From Nostoc sp. PCC 7120 = FACHB-418 (GTDB taxonomy: Bacteria; Cyanobacteriota; Cyanobacteriia; Cyanobacteriales; Nostocaceae): a stretch of 32,000 nt of DNA. The DNA lies in the NCBI RefSeq assembly GCF_000009705.1, contig NC_003272.1:4350001-4382000 (forward strand), in the 5' to 3' direction. Position 1 is the first letter of the stretch, and every line of letters begins with the position of its first letter. The notes beneath the pieces are model-generated. The model ran no database searches. It was given only the letters and a program-made list of their open reading frames with translations, and was not told the origin of the DNA. This document shows, one piece after another, positions 10,902 through 32,000 of this stretch. Both the position numbers and the translations under genes were made by a program.

Positions 10902-10973
10902 GCCGATGTGGCTCAGTGGTAGAGCAGCTGATTCGTAATCAGCAGGCCGTGGGTTCAAATCCCATCATCGGCT
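10902..10973 (+). tRNA. tRNA-Thr (anticodon CGU)
   Basis: Manual cloverleaf: acceptor GCCGATG/CATCGGC, D arm GCTC-AGTGGTA-GAGC, anticodon arm GCTGA-TTCGTAA-TCAGC (U33, CGT, A37), variable AGGCC, T arm GTGGG-TTCAAAT-CCCAT, discriminator T. No CCA is encoded. Confidence 0.9.
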
Positions 10974-11123
10974 TGGTTTTCATAAAATCATATTTTTGTC
11001 TTGACTAATTCTTGTGTACAGTGACAAATTAGAGGCTATTTATAAAGTAAATCTAAAGGAGAGCTATCAGATAAAAAGGCAGCGATAAGATACTGTTTGT
11101 AGAGTGTATTTACATAGGAAACA

Positions 11124-11507
11124 ATGAGACGAAAGTCTTATTCTACAGACCTTAATGACTCAGAATGGGCAATTTTAGCTCCTTTGATTCCACCCGCTAA
11201 ATGCGGTGGGCATCCCCGAACAACTGATATGCGAGAAGTATGCAACGCTATCTACTACCATCTGAAAACAGGTTGTCAGTGGGATATGCTTCCAGGGGAT
11301 TTTCCTCCTAGTTCAACTGTTTACAGCTACTATCGTAAATGGCAAAAACGAGGTATCTGGGAGCAAATGAATCATACTTTGCGCGATCAAGTTCGTCAAA
11401 AAATGGGGAAGTCAACTCAACCCACGGCGATCGCGGCAGACAGCCAGTCGGTAAAAACGACTGAAAAAAGGGGGATGTGTACGGTTTTGATGGTGGCAAG
11501 AAGGTAA
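11124..11507 (+). CDS. IS5-family transposase, OrfA (N-terminal part)
   Basis: 127-aa ORF with the typical N-terminus (LNDSEWAILAPLIPP...GHPR...R...NAIYY.LKTGCQW..LP). Confidence 0.8.
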   Translation: MRRKSYSTDLNDSEWAILAPLIPPAKCGGHPRTTDMREVCNAIYYHLKTGCQWDMLPGDFPPSSTVYSYYRKWQKRGIWEQMNHTLRDQVRQKMGKSTQPTAIAADSQSVKTTEKRGMCTVLMVARR

Positions 11508-11917
11508 AAGGACGAAAGCGGCAAACTTTGGTTGATAGTCTGGGACTTTTGTTAAAAGTGGTTGTAAGTGAAGCAAATGCTGGAGAAAGATTACTTGCCG
11601 CCTATACTTTGATGGAACTGTTAGAAGAGCGTCCAGAATTACTGGAAAAAGTTGAAGTCATCTGGGTTGATTCCGGCTATGACGGTGATAAATTTGCGCT
11701 CTCTGTTTGGCTGATGATTCAAGCTCATGTTGAGGTAATCCGGCGTACTAATCAAGAATTTCAGGTTTTGCCCAAACGGTGGGTAGTAGAAAGAACATTT
11801 GGCTGGTTAAACCAGTACCGTCGTCTCAGTAAGGATTATGAGCGTCTCCCAGAAATGAGTGAGGCTGCCATATATGCCGTTATGACTCGTATTATGCTAC
11901 GTCGTCTAGTCGTCTAA
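11477..11917 (+). CDS. IS5-family transposase, OrfB (DDE part), probably fused to OrfA by a -1 frameshift
   Basis: It lies in the -1 frame relative to OrfA. The overlap contains AAAAAAG (11464-11470). Reading through gives ...TTEKKGDVYGFDGGKKVKGRKR..., a GKK.KGRKR motif I associate with IS5-family enzymes. Confidence 0.8.
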   Translation: MYGFDGGKKVKGRKRQTLVDSLGLLLKVVVSEANAGERLLAAYTLMELLEERPELLEKVEVIWVDSGYDGDKFALSVWLMIQAHVEVIRRTNQEFQVLPKRWVVERTFGWLNQYRRLSKDYERLPEMSEAAIYAVMTRIMLRRLVV

Positions 11918-12165
11918 AGATTTACTTTATAAATGGTCTCTTATTTGTCGTCGGTGACAAATTGATGTCGTTGTGACAAATTATTGTCATCCAACTTAGT
12001 AACTCGCTTCCATATATATTTGTGACAAATTATTGTCATTTTTCGGAAAAGCAACAATTTATATATGGAGTTTCTCTATATATTTAGCCCCTATTATAAG
12101 CGTTTGCATTCAAAAAGCTCTTTTAATCACTTCTATGAGTAGCTTATCCTGAATAACTTTAGTTA

Positions 12166-12222
12166 CAAGCCGATGACGGGATTTGCTTTCAACCCTCTAC
12201 TTCTTGGAAATTAATTACACCA
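12166..12222 (-). ncRNA. Delocalized (orphan) homing crRNA: degenerate repeat plus a tRNA-Thr-matching spacer
   Basis: On the minus strand, 12222 to 12186 is a degenerate repeat that keeps only the 3' handle GAGGGTTGAAAG. It is followed by CAAATCCCGTCATCGGCTTG (12185 to 12166). That spacer matches CAAATCCCATCATCGGCTTG at 10956-10975 at 19 of 20 positions. Confidence 0.8.
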
Positions 12223-12254
12223 TCAGACAACGTAAGGCAGTTTCATATCCAATT

Positions 12255-12577
12255 TGTTTTCACCATGTATTACCGGAAGGAGGGTTGCAACCTGACGGAG
12301 CAAGCTGATTTGGTAGAAGCTGTTAATCTTTCAACCCTCCCATTACTGGAAGGAGGGTTGCAACGATCGCGCACAATATAAAGTTCTGAATATTCAAACT
12401 TTCAACCCTCCCATTACTGGAAGGAGGGTTGCAACGTTAAATTTTGGATGCGATCGCCCCACCGCTTCCTTTCAACCCTCCCATTACTGGAAGGAGGGTT
12501 GCAACGCGATGGATAAAGATACTAACTTTTTCTTCATCAGCTTTCAACCCTCCCATTACTGGAAGGAGGGTTGCAAC
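12255..12577 (-). CRISPR. Type V-K CRISPR array: 4 perfect 37-bp repeats plus 1 degenerate terminal repeat, 4 spacers
   Basis: Plus-strand repeat CTTTCAACCCTCCCATTACTGGAAGGAGGGTTGCAAC occurs at 12541-12577, 12469-12505, 12399-12435 and 12328-12364, with a degenerate copy at 12255-12291. Spacers are 35, 33, 34 and 36 bp. In the transcribed (minus) orientation the repeat is GTTGCAACCCTCCTTCCAGTAATGGGAGGGTTGAAAG. Confidence 0.95.
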
Positions 12578-12774
12578 TGCCACTCTATGAAACGCTTGTC
12601 TAGCAAGGTTTTTGAAGCAGATTTGCGCGAACCTCATCAAATAGCCTCCCAGGATGTAATTTTTGAATTGTCTACAAAAGAAATTTACTCATAAATTCCT
12701 TGTAGGATAAGGTTTTCAGGATGTGCGCGAACCTAGATCGGAATTTTGACCTCTCTTTGGTGCGTCAAATCAAG

Positions 12775-13024: not shown

Positions 13025-14944
13025 TCAACTTCGCCTAGCTAGGCGGAGACTATAAGCATAGAGGGCTAATTCTTTTGCTTTATCCTGCGGACTGCCACGA
13101 ATAGGTTGTTTACCTTCCTCAATCACAATTCCTATCTGAGCAGCTTTACTTTGAATACTTTGAATTAATCTGCCATAGCTCCATTGATGGACGTTAACTC
13201 GATACTGTTTGGCATATTTTTGCTGTATTTCTGAGGAGCTAGGACATTTTGCTTCGGCTATAGCTTGAATTTCGCTTTGAACAATTTCTCGTATATCTCC
13301 TAACTTAGGTAGGACTATACTGCCTGCTTTATAGGTCTGTGCGATCGCTACAATTTCTTTAGCTAGTAATCGGTCTACATATTGCCCTAACTCAGATGCC
13401 CCAAATTGATTAGGAGAGAAACTTTTTTGTGCTTTATGGCGTTCGTGGGATAGCGATCGCTGTTGTCGTCGTTGACGATTTAGAAGTTCGTAATTGTCGC
13501 CTAGTAACTGGCGGAGACTCCGATAAGTTAAAACTTTACCTGCAATCGCATCAACTACAGCGATAGTTGCAGGTTTTTCTAGCCCCAAGCTTACTCCAAC
13601 CAAAATATGTGATTGACCCTGGTACAGGGGTTTACTAGGACGATCAAAGGAATTGTTGATGCGAGTCAGTGTTGATTCTTTACGTTTGATAAAAGCGAGT
13701 TGTGTTTCGCTAAGGTCACTTTTATCCTTCATCTTGGTGATGAATTTGGTAATCTCCTCTGCTTTCTCTTGACGAACTTGTTCTGTTCCTTCAGCAGTCC
13801 AAAGGCGATTGTCAACACAGCAGTAAAGAGCTAAGTGTCCAATATTCCAAGGTTCGCCTTTACCTTCACCTTGTTGCCAAGCTAAACGACCATTTCTGAG
13901 TGTAAATAAACCACTAGAATGCTGATTTTTACTTTTGCGTTTAGTTTGTTGGTCTTCCAAGAAGCGTTTAAACCAGTACAGTTGACGACTATCGCAGTAA
14001 ACTTCAAAAATTAAATCGCTTAAACCATTGAAGTGAACACATAATCTACCTTTTTCGTTTGTTGACCAAACTAAATCTTCATTAGTCTCAAAAACCACAG
14101 GAAAAGGGATAGAACTAGATCGGGTTAAGAGAATATCCTGCCAGCGTTTGGCTTCAGCATTATTTTCTGGAACGGTGGTTGTAGCGGTGAAGAGTGTTTC
14201 CAACCATTTAGAGTACGTTAAATCTCGTCCCTTGGGAATCCGACTTGTTAGTTTGTCTGTTAACCGTTGAATTTGGATTTCAACTTTACGGCGGCGTTTA
14301 GCAAATTTTTCGGGGTTTTCTTCTTTGTCATTGAGTTTGCAGCCATTTTTCAGCAGATAACTGATGGCACTACGACTGAGTATGTCGTCAGTTTCTTGGT
14401 AAGCGTCAAATAATTTACGAGATAAGCTTCGGTCAGGATTGGAAGCAGATGATTTTTTAGATTGTTTAGTTTTTCCTCTTTTAGTTAAAAGAGTTTTAGG
14501 ATCAGATTCTGGTGTAGTTATTGCCAAAATCTCAGATGCTTTGGTACGAATTGCCTCTAAGCTAAAACCACTAATTTCTACTAATTCAACATCGCTGTTG
14601 AACATTTCTATCCAGCGTAATTTGCCATCTAGCTGTTGTTGTAGCCGTTTCTGTATAGTCAGCCAAGATTTGTAGATGTAATCAACAATATGAATTGCTG
14701 ATATATAGAAACGACTAGGCTGACCTGTAAAACTAGGGTCAGTTTTCAGGGGTTGGCAAAGCTGGGAAACAACAGTTGATGGCAGTTTGCCATTTCTTCG
14801 CCATTTCTCAAAATCTGGATGTTTACTAAGCTGCTGAAGCAGTTCGTTAATTAGAGGTGTGTTCGATTCTGCCATTAACTTCCAGAGTTTTTGGCGGGTA
14901 GATTCACTGGCAATTAAGCGACATTGAATAGTTTTTTGGCTCAT
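13025..14944 (-). CDS. cas12k: Cas12k (type V-K effector, naturally nuclease-deficient)
   Basis: 639 aa counted from the Met of MSQKTIQCRLIASESTRQKLWKLMAESNTPLINELL. It is colinear over its full length with the ShCas12k sequence as I recall it, through ...QPIRGSPQDKAKELALYAYSLRLARRS. The 13 extra N-terminal codons in the track ORF (to 14983) would overlap the divergent promoter. Confidence 0.95.
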   Translation of the reverse strand: MSQKTIQCRLIASESTRQKLWKLMAESNTPLINELLQQLSKHPDFEKWRRNGKLPSTVVSQLCQPLKTDPSFTGQPSRFYISAIHIVDYIYKSWLTIQKRLQQQLDGKLRWIEMFNSDVELVEISGFSLEAIRTKASEILAITTPESDPKTLLTKRGKTKQSKKSSASNPDRSLSRKLFDAYQETDDILSRSAISYLLKNGCKLNDKEENPEKFAKRRRKVEIQIQRLTDKLTSRIPKGRDLTYSKWLETLFTATTTVPENNAEAKRWQDILLTRSSSIPFPVVFETNEDLVWSTNEKGRLCVHFNGLSDLIFEVYCDSRQLYWFKRFLEDQQTKRKSKNQHSSGLFTLRNGRLAWQQGEGKGEPWNIGHLALYCCVDNRLWTAEGTEQVRQEKAEEITKFITKMKDKSDLSETQLAFIKRKESTLTRINNSFDRPSKPLYQGQSHILVGVSLGLEKPATIAVVDAIAGKVLTYRSLRQLLGDNYELLNRQRRQQRSLSHERHKAQKSFSPNQFGASELGQYVDRLLAKEIVAIAQTYKAGSIVLPKLGDIREIVQSEIQAIAEAKCPSSSEIQQKYAKQYRVNVHQWSYGRLIQSIQSKAAQIGIVIEEGKQPIRGSPQDKAKELALYAYSLRLARRS

Positions 14945-14964
14945 AAAAATAAAATACCATACAA

Positions 14965-14979
14965 AACACATAATGTTAT
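14965..14979. promoter_or_regulatory. Candidate CvkR operator in the cas12k/cvkR divergent promoter
   Basis: AACACATAATGTTAT fits the published CvkR motif AnnACATnATGTnnT (recalled). It lies 21 bp upstream of the cas12k ATG (14944) and 48 bp upstream of the cvkR ATG (15027). Confidence 0.65.
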
Positions 14980-15026
14980 ACAAAGCACTAATGTGTTTTA
15001 GAAGATGCTTCTATAGGATGTTTCTT

Positions 15027-18582: not shown

Positions 18583-20913
18583 ATGTCAGAAGTAATTGAC
18601 AAGAAATCTTTGAGTGAACGTGATATCTGTACAAAGTTTATTACACCTGCTTTAACTAATCGGGGATGGAATATCAGCACTCAGATTCGTGAGGAAGTGA
18701 CGCTGACAAAAGGTAGGGTGATTGTTAGGGGTAAGCTTACTAGTCGAGGTGAGCAGAAACGCGCTGATTATGTGCTGTATCACAAACCGGGTGTACCACT
18801 GGCTGTGATTGAAGCTAAAGATAATAATCACAGTGTCAGTGCGGGAATGCAGCAAGCGATCGCAACTGGTGAACTAATTGATGTACCATTCATCTTTAGC
18901 TCGAATGGCGACGCTTTTATGATGTGTGACTGTACAGTCACCGAAGGACAGCGAGAACGGGAAATTCCCCTCAATCAGTTCCCGACACCGGAAGAACTTT
19001 GGCAAAAATACTGCGATTGGAAGGGAATTGACTTACATATTCAGCCGATTGTGGCTCAAGATTATTATCCTAGTCCTGATAAAAAACAGCCACGCTATTA
19101 TCAACAGATTGCCATTAACCGGACAATTGAGGCGATCGCTAAAGGAGAAAACCGCATTCTGTTAGTGATGGCGACGGGTACGGGTAAGACTTTTACAGCT
19201 TTTCAGATTATCTGGCGGTTGTGGAAGTCAGGGGCGAAAAAGCGTATTCTGTTCTTGGCAGACCGCAACATTTTGGTTGATCAAACTAGAGTTAATGACT
19301 TTAAACCCTTTGGCTCAAAAATGACCAAAATTAAGCAGCGACAGATAGATACATCTTACGAGATTTATCTATGTCTGTATCAGGCGGTAACGGGAAATGA
19401 AGAGGCGAAAAACATTTATCGGCAGTTTTCACCAGGTTTTTTTGACTTAATTATTATAGATGAGTGCCATCGGGGAAGCGCGTCTGAAGATTCGGCATGG
19501 CGAGATATTTTGGCATATTTTAGCAGTGCAACGCAGATTGGCTTGACTGCTACCCCAAGGGAAACAGAAGAAGTTTCTAATAGTCTTTATTTTGGCGATT
19601 CAATTTTTACCTATTCGCTCAAACAAGGGATTGAAGATGGCTTTTTAGCTCCCTATAAAGTTATTCGCATTGACTTTGATACAGATTTGAGTGGCTGGAA
19701 ACCGAAGCCAGGACAAAGAGATAAATATGGTAAAGAAATTCCTGACCAAGTATTTAATCAGCGAGATTTTGATAGAACTCTGGTTTTAGAGAAGCGTACC
19801 GAGTTAGTCGCGCGGATTATTTCTGATTATCTCAAATCAAGCGATCGCTTTGCCAAAACTATCGTTTTTTGTGAGACGACTGACCACGCAGAACGGATGC
19901 GGGTGGCGTTGGTGAATGAGAATGCTGATTTGATGGCGGAGAATAGCCGCTACATTATGCGAATTACTGGGGATGATGCTCAGGGTAAAGCAGAATTAGA
20001 TAATTTCATTGACCCTGAAAGTAAATATCCTACGATTGTTACTACCTCTGAGTTACTGACGACTGGCGTTGATGCTAAAACTTGCAAGTTGATTGTTTTA
20101 GACCAGCGCATCCTGTCTATGACTAAATTTAAGCAAATTGTTGGTCGCGGTACGCGCATTGATGAAGACTATGGCAAAATGTTCTTCACCATTATCGATT
20201 TTAAGAAAGCAACACAGTTATTTGCTGACCCTGAGTTTGATGGTGAACCTGTACAAATTTATCAGCCCAAACCAGTTGATCCAATTGTTCCACCCGATAA
20301 TGGAGACGATGAGGTAATCATTGATGGTGAGATTACCCGCAAGCAAAAGCGGGAGAAGTATGTAATTGCAGACGAAGAGGTGTCTGTTGCTTTTATTCGT
20401 GAGCAGTACCACGGTAAGGACGGTAAGCTGATTACGGAATCGATTAAAGACTATACTCGCAAAACAGTTAGTCAGGAGTACGCCTCATTAGATGCTTTCT
20501 TGAAGAAATGGCACTCTACCGAACAAAAGCAGGCTATTATCCAAGAGCTACAGGAATTGGGTGTACCTTTGGAAGCGTTAGAAAAAGAGATTGGCAAGGG
20601 TTTTGACCCATTAGACTTGATTTGTCATGTTGTCTTTGACCAACCGCCACTAACACGGAAAGAAAGGGCGAACAATGTCCGCAAGCGTAATTATTTTAGC
20701 AAGTATAGTGAACAGGCTCGTAAGGTAATAGATGCGCTTTTGGATAAATATGCGGATGAAGGGATTGAAGATATTGAAAAATTGGATGTGCTGAAGGTTC
20801 ATCCTTTTGATAAAGTGGGTACACCAATAGAAATTATTCAGCTTTTTGGCAGTAGAAAAGAATATCTTAATGTACTTCAGCAGCTAAAAACGCAACTTTA
20901 TGAGATAGCCTAG
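18583..20913 (+). CDS. hsdR: Type I restriction enzyme, R subunit (HsdR)
   Basis: N-terminal PD-(D/E)xK nuclease region (ADYVLY...AVIEAKD) and SF2 helicase motifs (VMATGTGKT, IIDECHR, GLTATP, TTGVD, QIVGRGTR). Confidence 0.9.
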   Translation: MSEVIDKKSLSERDICTKFITPALTNRGWNISTQIREEVTLTKGRVIVRGKLTSRGEQKRADYVLYHKPGVPLAVIEAKDNNHSVSAGMQQAIATGELIDVPFIFSSNGDAFMMCDCTVTEGQREREIPLNQFPTPEELWQKYCDWKGIDLHIQPIVAQDYYPSPDKKQPRYYQQIAINRTIEAIAKGENRILLVMATGTGKTFTAFQIIWRLWKSGAKKRILFLADRNILVDQTRVNDFKPFGSKMTKIKQRQIDTSYEIYLCLYQAVTGNEEAKNIYRQFSPGFFDLIIIDECHRGSASEDSAWRDILAYFSSATQIGLTATPRETEEVSNSLYFGDSIFTYSLKQGIEDGFLAPYKVIRIDFDTDLSGWKPKPGQRDKYGKEIPDQVFNQRDFDRTLVLEKRTELVARIISDYLKSSDRFAKTIVFCETTDHAERMRVALVNENADLMAENSRYIMRITGDDAQGKAELDNFIDPESKYPTIVTTSELLTTGVDAKTCKLIVLDQRILSMTKFKQIVGRGTRIDEDYGKMFFTIIDFKKATQLFADPEFDGEPVQIYQPKPVDPIVPPDNGDDEVIIDGEITRKQKREKYVIADEEVSVAFIREQYHGKDGKLITESIKDYTRKTVSQEYASLDAFLKKWHSTEQKQAIIQELQELGVPLEALEKEIGKGFDPLDLICHVVFDQPPLTRKERANNVRKRNYFSKYSEQARKVIDALLDKYADEGIEDIEKLDVLKVHPFDKVGTPIEIIQLFGSRKEYLNVLQQLKTQLYEIA

Positions 20914-28413: not shown

Positions 28414-28920
28414 TCAGGTAATTTTTTGATACTTAGTCATTTCTGCAAAAGGTGTTCGACACCTATGACAACACTTATCCTCCCACAGCGCAGGTATTTT
28501 GAAAGGTGCTTCACAATTTGGACACTTCGCTAAAATCTTGAGTTCGTGGCGATCGCATTTCCATACTGATTTATACTGCCACTCAATTCGGTGACAAGGT
28601 GCTTCAGCATAACAAGCTCCACACAGGCGTATTGGCTCATGCTGCATACCAACTCCCAAAGGTGGCAGCATTTGAGCTAACCTGTCTGCATCTACTTCTA
28701 CTAGAGATGCGATCGCTTCTAATTCTTTTTGGCTAGGACGAGGATTAAAGTGAAATCGCTCCCACCTTGCAACTACTGCACCAATTCCTGCCAATTTACC
28801 CAACCCACTAGCAGATAAATGGTTAGCACGTCTAAATCGACCTAGAAAATGGCTCAAGCTTTCCCCTTCATAAGGTTGGATAATAAAAAGCCAAGGCTTA
28901 ACATCTGGTGCTGCCATCAC
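28414..28920 (-). CDS. tniQ: TniQ (short V-K type target-selector adaptor)
   Basis: 168 aa with PDVKPWLFIIQPYEGESLSHFLGRFRRANHLS and Cys-rich zinc-ribbon motifs (CGACY...CPNC...CHRC). It is near-colinear with ShTniQ as recalled. It overlaps the tnsC stop by 4 bp. Confidence 0.9.
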   Translation of the reverse strand: MMAAPDVKPWLFIIQPYEGESLSHFLGRFRRANHLSASGLGKLAGIGAVVARWERFHFNPRPSQKELEAIASLVEVDADRLAQMLPPLGVGMQHEPIRLCGACYAEAPCHRIEWQYKSVWKCDRHELKILAKCPNCEAPFKIPALWEDKCCHRCRTPFAEMTKYQKIT

Positions 28921-29747
28921 TTATACTCCTGCGCCACTTCCTGTAAAACAGGCTTGTCAATTTTCTTTAATCCCCTTGATAGAGAACGAATTGCTGCTTC
29001 CCTGAGAATTTCATCTAACCGACCAATGTAACCTTCTGTTGCCGAAGTTAAAATCCGCAGCATATCCTTGCTAATGAGATTAGAAGGCAATGGTAACTTT
29101 AAAATCTTATCCTCCCAGGCTTGTACAGTATCCTGGAAATCTTTCCCTGACAACTTTCCAAAACGATGACAAGCCCGAAAGCGGTTATAAACTTGTTCAT
29201 CTCGCTTAATTACTGCTTCTAATCGATCAGTTCCTACTAAAACAACAGCAATGCCCAACTTGTCATAAATATCACGCACCTCTGCAAAAGTCTCAGGCTT
29301 GAGGCGGTCAGCTTCATCAACAATAATCATTTCTACGCCACAGCCTTTTAAAACCTCCATTGTTCTGCCACGAAAATCTGATACTGTTCCCTTAGTTGCT
29401 TTAAATTTTAGATACTCAATAATTTCTTGAAACAAATCCTTAGCACCGCATTTTTGGGGTGGCTGAATATAAACCACAGGGACAATTGGTGGTCGTCCCA
29501 CCTCCGCCTGTACTTTTTGTCTGTATCTGTACGCATCACAAGCAACTGTTTTCCCCGTGCGTGATTCTCCAACTACTCGGCAAAATTGTCGTGCTTTACG
29601 TTTTCCATCCAACCAATCATGCAAAGACCTCACTTGCTGTAATGGAACAATACTCTTACCCTTGAGACGAGCAATTTCAGCTTGCAACCATTCTTCATCC
29701 GGTTTCACCCCACCTAACTGTTGAGCGATCGCTTTGGCATCTGTCAT
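28917..29747 (-). CDS. tnsC: TnsC AAA+ ATPase
   Basis: 276 aa with Walker A (GESRTGKT) and Walker B (IIVDEADRL). It is colinear with ShTnsC as recalled. Confidence 0.9.
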   Translation of the reverse strand: MTDAKAIAQQLGGVKPDEEWLQAEIARLKGKSIVPLQQVRSLHDWLDGKRKARQFCRVVGESRTGKTVACDAYRYRQKVQAEVGRPPIVPVVYIQPPQKCGAKDLFQEIIEYLKFKATKGTVSDFRGRTMEVLKGCGVEMIIVDEADRLKPETFAEVRDIYDKLGIAVVLVGTDRLEAVIKRDEQVYNRFRACHRFGKLSGKDFQDTVQAWEDKILKLPLPSNLISKDMLRILTSATEGYIGRLDEILREAAIRSLSRGLKKIDKPVLQEVAQEYK

Positions 29748-29750
29748 TGT

Positions 29751-31364
29751 TTAAAATCCGTATTCTTCACGCAGTTGTTCATAGTCCCAAACCTCTAGTT
29801 CTGAGGATGAAGATTGAACCTCAGTAGTAGATTCCACTTCTTCTGCTTCCATAACAGAAGATGCTAGGGACTCAGTTTTACTTTCATTCACCGCAGCAGA
29901 ACGCAAAATTGCCTGCTCTAATTTTTGACGTTCCTTGCGACTTTTCTTGTTTGCTACCATCGCGTCACGCTCAAGGACTTCTTGCAATAAGGCTTGGTTA
30001 CTGACAGTCTTTCCTGCATTACGCAGTCTACGACTAGCTGCTTCAGCTTCATCTAATGAAAGTTGCTCAGTCTCCAAACCTTGAGCATGAGTGCGAGTCA
30101 GAAAAACTTCTTGGCTTTTCTCTTGGCGATAAACCAGCACCGTTGTAATATCTCTGGGGTCATATCTTAAATTAACTGTCTCCCCTGCATATCCTGCTAG
30201 ATACTCCCCTCGATACATCACATTTTGAAACTGTAAGCATCCGCCTCTTTGTACTGTGCGCCGTGACTGTTTCATCAAGCAGATATCTAAATCACGTTCT
30301 TCGATTGGCACTGGTACTGAAGGCAATCCCGCTTCCCAACGCCCAAAGCGGGTTTGATCGCCCATTCGCGCATCAATACTTTGGTTATAGCGGTCAACAA
30401 TGTAGCGAACGAGTAATTGTTCTAGTTCCCGCAAGGTTAGTTTTGCATCCTTCTCTGCATCTTCAAGGCGTTCCTGTACATTAGATCCGGTATAACCTGG
30501 AAGTGTTGAAAATAGTTGGTCATTCAGTGTCTTAAAAGGACGCTCAACAATACCACCTTCACTGGGGCGATCGCGTAAATGACAAACAAACCCCAATTGC
30601 GCCCCGATTTGACTTAAATGGTTTGAACGAAAATCTTTACCCCCATCAGTATAAAAATGTTCTGGCTTACCGTAAGTTCCCCATTCGCAGTGCAGTTTGT
30701 ACTCTGCACCATATTTTTTCGGCAAAATCGCATGGCGTAATGCTAAAGCTACTACAACTGAACTAGGCGCATCAAAGCCCAAATTAATACCCATGATGCA
30801 ACGAGAATAAGTATCAATTACAGTTGTCAGCCAGGGACGACTTAAAAGTTCACCATGCTGATCTACCAGCAGTACATCTACACGAGTATGGTCACATTGC
30901 CAAACATGGTTGCTGTAATCGACTGATAAATCTTGTCCCTCACGAGTTTTAACGGAAAGTGTTGTCCCCCTCCAACCAGGGCTGCGGATACTCTTAGTTT
31001 TTTCTTTTTGTTCCAAGATTGGAGCTAATACCCTTAAAACTGTCCTGTAATTAGGAGGCTTGGAATCGCCTAGTTCACGCGCTTTAGCTTGAACCCTCAA
31101 GGCAACTTGTTTGGGTGTCATGCGTTTACTACCCTTATTACCTTCCTTGTAAGTTTTGATGATGAAGTTTTCCCAAAACTCACCAATTCGATGTTTTCCT
31201 TTATCCGCCCTACCTGTCTGAATGAATCCAACTAAGCCATCCTCTTCCCATTTTTTCACCAAACGCTGCACCGTTCGCACTGTCACACCCAGTGTGTCCG
31301 CAGCCTCCTTCAACTTCTGCCCATAAGTTGTGCGATCGCAAGGCTCAAGTAAAGTTTGGATCAC
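29751..31364 (-). CDS. tnsB: TnsB DDE transposase (Mu/Tn7 type); its conserved N-terminal ~42 codons are in another frame upstream
   Basis: HTH (TVRTVQRLVKKWEEDGL) and DDE core (WQCDHT...YTDGGKDF...PSEGGIVER), colinear with ShTnsB as recalled. The track start is a GTG. Homologous sequence (VTELSEEAQLKLEV) continues upstream, and an ATG at 31498 is out of frame because of an 8-bp duplication. Confidence 0.9.
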   Translation of the reverse strand: MIQTLLEPCDRTTYGQKLKEAADTLGVTVRTVQRLVKKWEEDGLVGFIQTGRADKGKHRIGEFWENFIIKTYKEGNKGSKRMTPKQVALRVQAKARELGDSKPPNYRTVLRVLAPILEQKEKTKSIRSPGWRGTTLSVKTREGQDLSVDYSNHVWQCDHTRVDVLLVDQHGELLSRPWLTTVIDTYSRCIMGINLGFDAPSSVVVALALRHAILPKKYGAEYKLHCEWGTYGKPEHFYTDGGKDFRSNHLSQIGAQLGFVCHLRDRPSEGGIVERPFKTLNDQLFSTLPGYTGSNVQERLEDAEKDAKLTLRELEQLLVRYIVDRYNQSIDARMGDQTRFGRWEAGLPSVPVPIEERDLDICLMKQSRRTVQRGGCLQFQNVMYRGEYLAGYAGETVNLRYDPRDITTVLVYRQEKSQEVFLTRTHAQGLETEQLSLDEAEAASRRLRNAGKTVSNQALLQEVLERDAMVANKKSRKERQKLEQAILRSAAVNESKTESLASSVMEAEEVESTTEVQSSSSELEVWDYEQLREEYGF

Positions 31365-31548: not shown

Positions 31549-31565
31549 TCTAAACGTGGAGAAAA

Positions 31566-31776
31566 CGACAGTCAATTTGTCATTATGAAAATATACAAAA
31601 CCTTTTTTGTAATTACTGAAGCGACAGTTAATTTGTCATTTTTGCGGAAAACGACATTTATTTAGTCACGTATGAGAAATAATGTAATAACTCTTAAATA
31701 GCTAAAACCTTTGTATTGCAAGGATTCATTCGACGACATTAATTTGTCACGACGACAAACAATTAGTCACTGTACA
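31566..31776. repeat. CAST end proximal to tnsB (I believe RE in ShCAST nomenclature) with five TnsB-type repeats
   Basis: ~18-bp repeats: CGACAGTCAATTTGTCAT at 31566-31583, CGACAGTTAATTTGTCAT at 31622-31639, CGACATTTATTTAGTCAC at 31652-31669, CGACATTAATTTGTCAC at 31734-31750 and CGACAAACAATTAGTCAC at 31753-31770. The terminal TGTACA is at 31771-31776. Confidence 0.85.
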
Positions 31777-31848
31777 TCTTGTGTACAGTGACAAATAATT
31801 AGTCACTGTACATCTTGTGTACAGTGACAAATAATTAGTCACTGTACA
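31777..31848. repeat. Two tandem 36-bp units, each TCTTG plus a 31-bp palindromic end-to-end mini-element
   Basis: TCTTG (31777-31781) is followed by TGTACAGTGACAAATAATTAGTCACTGTACA (31782-31812). TCTTG (31813-31817) is followed by an identical 31-mer (31818-31848). Each 31-mer joins the first 15 nt of one CAST terminus to the last 16 nt of the other. Confidence 0.9.
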
Positions 31849-32000
31849 TCAAAGTTGAATAAACCAAGCGCACAAAGAGGCAACTTGGTCAGGCTGAGTG
31901 AGGTTTGCTGCATTAGTAAGAATGCCAGAATTTAGTTGATGCCAAATTTCTTCTGCCATGCTTTTTTCTATAGCAGATCCCACAAAAAAAGTATATGGCT

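Follow-up and report, generated by a model that had tools for sequence, protein, structure and literature searches.

This analysis concerns the tnsB-side junction of AnCAST, the type V-K CRISPR-associated transposon (CAST) of Anabaena/Nostoc PCC 7120, which is homed to a tRNA-Thr gene and lies in a window of 32,000 nucleotides (contig NC_003272.1, positions 4,350,001 to 4,382,000; coordinates below are those of the window). The element spans 11015-31776 (20,762 bp) with TCTTG at both borders, and its layout and the naming of its left end (LE, proximal to the tRNA and the CRISPR array) and right end (RE, proximal to tnsB) follow the published description of AnCAST (PMC9938897). Just outside the RE are two 31-bp sequences in which the tips of both ends are fused, and these are interpreted here as probable scars of earlier CASTs at the same site.

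Genes and features that define a type V-K CAST were found in the window. The genes cas12k (13025-14983; 1162 bits against ShCas12k PDB chains), tniQ (28414-28920; Pfam TniQ), tnsC (28917-29747; Pfam TniB/AAA_22), and tnsB (29751-31364; Pfam Mu-transpos_C/rve, 1091 bits against ShTnsB) are encoded on the minus strand, as is a CRISPR array of five repeats (12252-12578) identified by repeat search, and the cargo includes GmrSD and a type I restriction-modification system. No TnsA-like protein was detected in a Pfam scan of 10 of the 25 large open reading frames of the window; the type V-K family is known to be without TnsA and resolvase (PMC11406308). The homing target, tRNA-Thr(CGT), is at 10902-10973 on the plus strand (ARAGORN), where a protospacer-adjacent motif (PAM) GGTT at 10952-10955, of the GTN type, precedes a protospacer at 10956-10975 within the tRNA-Thr region. 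The anchor (homing) spacer and its truncated repeat (12166-12209, minus strand) form an inverted match to the 3' part of the tRNA, in the layout described for AnCAST (PMC9938897), and 19 of 20 positions of the spacer itself (12166-12185) match the protospacer. Beside the tRNA, the LE (11015-12040, plus strand; tip TGTACAGTGACAAATTA), identified from its repeat family and a TnsB half-site scan, begins 60 nt past the last PAM base. It is preceded by the native target 5-mer TCTTG (11010-11014), the left copy of a 5-bp target-site duplication, and the same 5-mer is at the same position in an empty site of a relative (locus L062).

At the other border, the RE (31563-31776, minus strand) contains five TnsB sites, identified from their repeat family and by the half-site scan, of which the terminal one (GACGACAAACAATTAGTCAC) is followed by TGTACA. 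The RE ends in ...GACGACAAACAATTAGTCACTGTACA, with TGTACA last, and stops at 31776. From there the sequence reads TCTTG (31777-31781, the right copy of the target-site duplication of the present CAST), an inner 31-bp fusion of LE tip and RE tip, TGTACAGTGACAAATAATTAGTCACTGTACA (31782-31812), with TCTTG on each side, a further TCTTG (31813-31817) that separates the two 31-mers, an outer 31-mer of the same letters (31818-31848) with no duplication on its right, and TCAAAG; none of these features has a strand. A preliminary description, made from the letters alone, had given 31777-31848 in this order and had parsed each 31-mer as the outermost 15 nt of the LE joined to the outermost 16 nt of the RE, and both points were exact on re-reading. 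The parse can be refined: the right-hand 23 nt of each 31-mer (GACAAATAATTAGTCACTGTACA) agree at 22 of 23 positions with the RE tip over the same length (GACAAACAATTAGTCACTGTACA), the exception being a C in the RE and a T in both 31-mers.

The region 31754-31850 forms a tandem array with a period of 36 bp, 2.7 copies, and 98% matches (Tandem Repeats Finder, in agreement with a repeat search), where the unit is composed of 23 nt of RE tip, TCTTG, and 8 nt of LE tip, and the first unit starts within the RE. The 20-mer TCTTGTGTACAGTGACAAAT occurs at 11010, 31777, and 31813, with a chance expectation of none, and the terminal 11-mer TGTACAGTGAC was found eight times at no more than one mismatch, against 0.42 occurrences expected. 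Perfect direct repeats of 20 bp now border AnCAST at both sides, through which it could be deleted in its entirety, with a scar left behind. As a hairpin of single-stranded DNA, the 31-mer has a stem of 11-13 bp (-10.2 kcal/mol, z-score -5.5). The minus strand of each 31-mer carries a TnsB half-site core of 13.3 bits, equal to that of the genuine terminal site of the RE, and the core on the plus strand is weaker (half-site scan).

The TnsC protein was matched exactly at ten loci, in genomes of PCC 7120 type and in metagenome contigs. The order RE, TCTTG, 31-mer, TCTTG, 31-mer, TCAAAG was kept exactly in eight of the ten (among them two complete chromosomes and several metagenome contigs), a ninth had a gap of N letters across the repeat, and the last was too short. 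An assembly artefact, which the preliminary description had raised as a concern, was ruled out by the eight identical assemblies; as PCC 7120-type assemblies represent essentially one strain lineage, they are uninformative on variation in unit copy number.

The tips of the 31-mers are exactly the termini of ShCAST-type elements, as given by published primers (LE TGTACAGTGACAAAT..., RE TGTACAGTGACTAAT...; PMC9527255). The left arm is of LE type (GTGACAAAT) and the right arm of RE type (GTGACTAAT), so that each 31-mer is a fusion of LE and RE; a foldback of one CAST end was ruled out on the same grounds. TnsB sites are pseudo-palindromic (GTGAC-AAATTATTT-GTCGTC), and for this reason there is direct homology between the first sites of the LE and of the RE despite their mutually inverted orientation. 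The LE and RE tips of AnCAST itself share six nucleotides, GACAAA. With an RE of the T type, for which a natural tip (...GATGACAAATAATTAGTCACTGTACA) was found on the Crinalium plasmid pCRI9333.02, the 31-mer reads as LE positions 1-8, a shared 7-nt GACAAAT, and the last 16 nt of the RE. Given such an RE, the 31-mer is, to judge from its letters, a classic microhomology deletion junction.

Similar junctions were found in other cyanobacteria. One genome per species was scanned (185,579 species) for the pattern TGTACAGTGAC-N(0-30)-GTCACTGTACA; this exact pattern misses variants, as with the Trichormus variabilis (T. variabilis) scar described below, which escaped it, and the counts are lower bounds. 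The scan returned 13 loci, five of which were unrelated palindromes in Pseudoalteromonas and other non-cyanobacteria and eight of which were cyanobacterial with TnsB-site centres. Four of the eight were 31-mers (L006, Aulosira; L008, Nostoc; L011, Leptolyngbyaceae; L012, Phormidium), and those of L008 and L011 are identical to the copies in the window, so that identical 31-mers occur in three genera. The other four (L001, L003, L004, and L007), all from Nostoc species, were 51-52-mers composed of LE positions 1-20 and the last 31 nt of the RE, joined in the TTTGTC that LE site 1 has in common with RE site 2. The two size classes correspond to the superposition of LE site 1 on RE site 1 (31 bp) and of LE site 1 on RE site 2 (51-52 bp). 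The 51-mer of L007 is perfectly palindromic, its arms being 23 bp long (-23.1 kcal/mol as a DNA hairpin). In both classes, the scar junctions lie in short direct homologies contributed by pseudo-palindromic TnsB sites, beside strong terminal inverted repeats.

Seven of the eight scars were next to tRNA-Val, tRNA-His, or tRNA-Leu, at or near the homing position. For example, the solitary scars of L006 and L011 are 7-8 bp from tRNA-Val(GAC) and that of L012 is 8 bp from tRNA-His, distances that match the LE start in the occupied tRNA-Val sites of L007 and L008 (5-7 bp from the tRNA), and those of L001 and L003 are about 35-40 bp from the 3' exon of a tRNA-Leu that carries a group I intron. Target duplications were missing in nine of nine solitary scars (T. 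variabilis counted) and at the outer scar of the window, and a duplication was retained around the inner scar. A search for duplications at small offsets gave only two matches (L007 and L008), compatible with chance.

The loci L007 (4873-5352) and L008 (2472-2802) contain degenerate CASTs of 330-480 bp at tRNA-Val, each composed of an LE, an anchor crRNA, two or three CRISPR repeats, and a scar of 51 or 31 bp. As the LE terminus of the scar abuts array-internal sequence, these loci imply an insertion or self-insertion into the array before collapse. Within the fetched loci, no cas or tns genes were found at the solitary scars or at L007 and L008. A metagenome scan with the same pattern returned 22 loci, where 21 were unrelated palindromes sharing the arms only and one duplicated L004. 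Among plasmids, a blastn search with the scar region (window 31777-31853) returned ordinary RE tips only, and a tblastn search with TnsB returned 12 records, where the ShCAST-type terminus TGTACAGTGAC was missing in the three RE regions inspected, which are not comparable for this reason.

The history of the tRNA-Thr site was reconstructed from relatives, whose sites were retrieved through a conserved neighbour on the left of the tRNA, the DUF3493 gene. Five states were seen among close relatives (L031, L033, L059, L060, L062, and L063 among the loci compared) at the 3' flank of tRNA-Thr(CGT) (window 10974-11014), which is a rearrangement hot spot. The site is empty in L062 and L063 (Anabaena azotica), where the tRNA is followed by a homologous spacer of 41-42 nt ending in GACCGAATCTTG, then by ACCATTTACGCC, about 560 bp, and a peptidase M42 gene. 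Six T. variabilis loci (L027-L030, L032, and L034) are free of a CAST and carry a scar only, reading tRNA-Thr...TCTTG TGTACtttacAGTGACAAATAATTAGTCACTGTACA TCAAAT, followed by AvaI-family R and M genes. PCC 7120 resembles T. variabilis with the addition of AnCAST and a second scar. Anabaena subtropica carries a different CAST (LE TGTACGGTGACTAATT...), whose insertion point is nearer to this tRNA by 4 bp. Lastly, in L031, L033, and L060 the tRNA abuts the peptidase M42 gene and all DNA in between is gone.

Because the CAST-free T. variabilis carries one scar at the same place and with the same flanks, TCTTG and TCAAA, the outer scar, its ortholog in the window, predates AnCAST on this comparison. 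AnCAST integrated into the TCTTG abutting the resident scar, duplicated those 5 bp, and displaced the scar outward. Judged from the aligned sites, its integration nucleotide was that of the earlier occupant, as a ruler measured from the PAM predicts, and the adjacent TnsB site was no barrier. The preliminary description had suggested collapsed remnants of earlier CAST copies, each pushed outward by the next, and had proposed a comparison of related strains for empty sites and unit numbers. That comparison yielded both empty sites (L062 and L063) and single-scar sites (T. variabilis), and it bears the suggestion out for the outer 31-mer, as the CAST now sits at the tRNA-side boundary of that scar with TCTTG on both sides; the inner copy is left open by it. 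It also excluded, together with the flank, 31848 as the functional terminus, one of two positions between which the same description had hesitated. Positions 31776 and 31812 are both followed by TCTTG and the target duplication fits either, and a terminus at 31776 keeps the first two TnsB sites of the RE abutting.

Between PCC 7120 and T. variabilis, the 41-nt spacer differs at 5 positions and the right flank at 2 of 152, and the scar is without substitutions. The T. variabilis scar, TGTAC-TTTAC-AGTGACAAATAATTAGTCACTGTACA, is 36 bp long and has five extra nucleotides. As seen in L027 (reverse strand, about 40 nt after tRNA-Thr), these lie within the LE tip (TGTAC-TTTAC-AGTGAC), have the size of a Tn7-type target duplication, and are one substitution away from a duplication of TGTAC.

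The DNA right of the outer scar encodes the 3' end of an AvaI/BsoBI-family restriction endonuclease gene (31849-32000, minus strand; identified by translation, and called as a gene in L014-L022), whose natural stop TGA (TCA on the plus strand) abuts the scar. A truncated flanking gene was ruled out, as the C-terminus of the protein aligns flush with eight homologues. The AvaI/BsoBI-family pair beside the scar (also at L015 5504-7899) forms a 2.75-kb island that is missing from several relatives; synteny by way of AvaI homologues was uninformative, with P0002 and P0003 in unrelated contexts of other cyanobacteria. In two relatives the empty sites have the junction TCTTG|ACCATTTA; on this comparison, the sequence beyond the outer scar is not the original target flank, which the AvaI island has replaced. 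The preliminary description had correctly remarked that the outermost flank, TCAAA, is not TCTTG and does not fit simple serial insertion; the discrepancy is explained, since TCAAA belongs to the replacing island. A transposon terminus cleanly joined to foreign DNA is the mark of a joint made by the transposase, or else of two CAST copies that had unlike flanks and recombined.

Three further observations concern AnCAST itself. A 909-bp insertion sequence (IS) of the IS5 family (11032-11940; inverted repeats; TTA duplication; DUF4096 and DDE_Tnp_1 domains) splits the first TnsB site of the LE, which reads TGTACAGTGACAAATTATTTGTCGTC at its tip with the IS taken out. The IS (window 11029-11943) parts the terminal 17 nt from the remaining LE TnsB sites by 912 bp, and AnCAST is probably immobile now because of this split. 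The anchor spacer CAAATCCCGTCATCGGCTTG has one mismatch to the tRNA-Thr of its own genome (CCCATCATC) and is perfect to a variant (CCCGTCATC) in three related species (L060, L062, and L063), and these letters suggest that AnCAST was acquired from a host with the G variant of tRNA-Thr. In the hsdR cargo gene, a 16-bp palindrome (GTGACTGTACAGTCAC, 18926-18941) resembles two abutted end tips with one mismatch each, most likely by chance.

We interpret the 31-mers as inert scars of earlier type V-K CAST occupancy at the homing site that arose by microhomology-mediated collapse and are not mobile units, with a probability of roughly 0.68. A resident CAST would have lost its interior by deletion between short direct homologies of its TnsB sites, where pairing of GACAAAT of the first LE site with GACAAA(T/C) of the first RE site would give the 31-bp class and pairing of TTTGTC of the first LE site with the second RE site the 51-52-bp class. 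The likely route would be replication slippage, or abortive gap repair that is primed by microhomology and uses another chromosome copy, aided by the terminal inverted repeats. At the tRNA-Thr site, the RE-side flank of the progenitor would have been replaced by the AvaI island, possibly via a novel joint made by the transposase or by recombination between CAST copies.

The missing target duplications may have more than one cause. Flank replacement is one, as seen here, and successive homing at slightly different offsets is another possible one, an offset of 4 bp being seen in A. subtropica; LE-tip recombination after homing at an offset would also mismatch the flanks. Survivorship may contribute as well. 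The remnant left by nearly precise excision of Tn10 is itself precisely excised at high frequency. By analogy, scars that keep both duplication copies would probably be lost fast by precise excision, and mainly duplication-less scars would persist as solitary fossils, because a palindrome between direct repeats would be lost quickly and the empty site restored.

Several points weigh against this interpretation. Slippage would be inefficient between homologous stretches of 6-7 nt that lie 20 kb apart, unless something such as TnsB synapsis draws the ends to each other. The RE of AnCAST has a C where both scars have a T, so that the scars did not arise from this copy via the microhomology. The collapse model accounts neither for the five extra nucleotides of the T. 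variabilis scar nor for the source of the AvaI island at the RE terminus, and the L004 scar has no recognizable RNA gene or CAST feature nearby. The survivorship account is an analogy with Tn10, and the inner scar, though flanked by duplications, has been stable in all PCC 7120-type assemblies (one strain lineage).

For the inner copy, a slippage duplication of 36 bp is favoured on parsimony. The starting arrangement would have been TCTTG[AnCAST]TCTTG[scar]TCAAA, in which the RE tip and the scar provide 23-nt direct repeats, 22 of 23 positions identical and 36 bp apart, and one replication slip would add a unit and give the order C, T, T at the variable position, as observed. The array has the constant period (36 bp), the near-identity (98% over 2.7 copies), and the pre-existing direct-repeat seed expected of slippage repeats. 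The preliminary description had listed slippage or unequal crossover of a 36-bp unit among the possible origins; slippage is the simplest account of the inner copy.

Strict serial insertion is the strongest competitor to slippage, possible but a good deal less probable than not. Under it, a CAST with a T-type RE would have homed to the TCTTG beside the old scar and collapsed before AnCAST homed again, and both scars would be independent. The inner scar does have TCTTG on each side, like a collapsed simple insertion, site reuse is evident from the T. variabilis scar and the A. subtropica CAST, and T-type RE tips occur in nature. However, three rare events (insertion, collapse, and insertion) are needed in place of one slip, the two scars are identical at 31 of 31 positions, the C, T, T pattern fits a slip between RE tip and scar, and the intermediate state was found in no strain.

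A different process of collapse can also be considered, in which the scars derive from a TnsB-dependent exit pathway. Synapsis of LE and RE would register their pseudo-palindromic terminal sites, and the interior of the TnsA-less CAST would be removed. Pairing of the ends by TnsB may indeed be needed, because a 6-7-nt homology across 20 kb is a poor substrate for spontaneous deletion, and we regard this pathway as unlikely. If true, it would give type V-K CASTs an unrecognized means of vacating a site or of clearing tandem and cointegrate copies; it would yield two discrete sizes, 31 bp and 51-52 bp, and the scars might then modulate re-homing.

The scars are regarded as inert, and a function for them is improbable. 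They could act as TnsB decoys, target-immunity elements, or alternative cleavage ends, or as hairpins that stop read-through from avaIR into tnsB. The TnsB-site core in each scar is as good as that of the true terminal site, and the scar is without substitutions between PCC 7120 and T. variabilis against five in the 41-bp spacer. Yet 31 unchanged nucleotides are within chance at the divergence of the right flank (2 of 152 nt), integration of AnCAST right beside a scar indicates that one scar gives no immunity, and solitary scars elsewhere lie in unrelated contexts. As for the hairpins, the RE-tip/TCTTG/LE-tip junctions on the minus strand (31766-31828) fit a terminator-like pattern with an 11-bp stem, a 5-nt loop, and a T-rich tail, situated between avaIR and tnsB on their common coding strand, but this call is a consensus match only.

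Still less probable is a composite right end, whereby AnCAST would have arrived with the inner scar from a previous tRNA-Thr site as a unit ending at 31812 (RE, TCTTG, and scar) and come to lie beside the resident outer scar. The TCTTG that also follows 31812, and hence the duplication, would fit equally well, the terminal TnsB half-site of the scar equals that of the genuine RE (13.3 bits each), and the better match of the anchor spacer to the tRNA-Thr of other species places the origin of the element elsewhere. Against this, the internal 5-mer carried over from the previous site would have to be the same as the 5-mer of the new target, the terminal TnsB site would be set apart from the second one by 17 bp of DNA that is not a site, whereas in the true RE the two abut, and no other locus with such an end was found.

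That the 31-mers are mobile elements moved in trans by CAST proteins, in the manner of miniature inverted-repeat transposable elements (MITEs) and as the label mini-transposon in the preliminary description could be taken to mean, or a generic dispersed repeat or an assembly artefact, is very improbable: in its favour are the terminal inverted repeats, which are perfect and close with the sequence cleaved by TnsB, the 5-bp duplication at the inner copy, and identical 31-mers in three genera, but copies are single at each locus and nearly all at or near homing positions by tRNAs, the nine solitary copies are all without their own duplication, the assemblies agree, each scar has one or two TnsB sites (at most one full site in a 31-mer) against four or five per genuine end, and, by inference from ShTnsB strand-transfer structures (PMC9527255), 31 bp cannot plausibly bend both ends into one transpososome.

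The handling of type V-K cointegrates in native hosts is unknown according to a 2024 review, which also points to the lack of a comparison between type V-K and Tn7 target immunity (PMC11406308), and the scars are natural records bearing on both. They indicate that the same tRNA landing site was hit repeatedly at one nucleotide, that a resident TnsB site beside the target did not block integration, that whole elements were lost and left defined LE/RE fusions, and that RE-side flanks were replaced, as expected of a replicative element. The scar signature also provides a simple way to find former CAST sites in genomes now without the element. For engineering, ShCAST-type ends contain direct microhomologies able to delete cargo. 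Their use is as a natural record of how CASTs turn over, and they do not amount to a new system.

Among known systems, the closest likeness is to the nearly precise excision of Tn10, which Ross, Swan and Kleckner in 1979 and Foster et al. in 1981 are said to have described and which reportedly leaves a short palindromic remnant, the rest being deleted between short direct repeats inside the inverted termini. As in the Tn10 remnant, both termini are kept in inverted orientation in the CAST scars (15 nt of LE and 16 nt of RE in the 31-mer, 23-nt arms in the 51-mers), and the junction lies in a short direct repeat near both ends (GACAAAT in the LE tip and T-type RE tips, TTTGTC for the 51-mers); the Tn10 remnant is a by-product of replication or repair and not of transposition chemistry. 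In contrast, Tn10 has inverted IS10 arms of 1.3 kb and direct repeats of 24 bp, whereas the CAST scars involve an inverted repeat of about 11-23 bp and a homology of 6-7 nt across 20 kb, and a duplication, of 9 bp, stays with the Tn10 remnant, while solitary CAST scars have none. Slippage-type excision of IS10/Tn10 is referred to Ross 1979 and Foster 1981 in 10.1101/2023.06.07.543989.

A second likeness is to internally deleted derivatives of other transposons. The P element KP, Ac/Ds derivatives, and many MITEs are non-autonomous elements that lost their interior by abortive gap repair. Similarly to these, the scars keep the termini, lack the interior, and have junctions at microhomologies, and multiple chromosome copies would provide a repair template. 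However, the derivatives stay mobile and disperse, while the CAST scars are far below minimal end length and remain single at homing sites; functional ShCAST and AnCAST ends have three to five TnsB sites over 100-200 bp (PMC9527255; PMC9938897), compared to one in the 31-bp and two in the 51-bp scars. Additionally, type V-K CASTs are without TnsA, so that double-strand breaks at the donor are not a programmed step (PMC11406308).

The scars are also like the Tn7-family remnants at attachment-site islands (nrdB site, Acinetobacter baumannii; PMC11014353), where a site at a fixed offset is reused and older occupants decay in place. Those remnants are degraded with ends that are hard to recognize, whereas the CAST scars are sharp 31- or 51-52-bp LE/RE fusions that follow the TnsB-site register. 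Remnants, tandem copies, or excision scars were not mentioned in the type V-K literature consulted (the AnCAST paper, the Hsieh and Peters preprint and 2024 review, the TnsB structure paper, and the V-K subgroup paper). The scars are of a known kind, that of transposon excision remnants, which appears to be undescribed for CASTs, and what distinguishes them are the two size classes set by the TnsB-site register and their location at RNA-guided homing sites.

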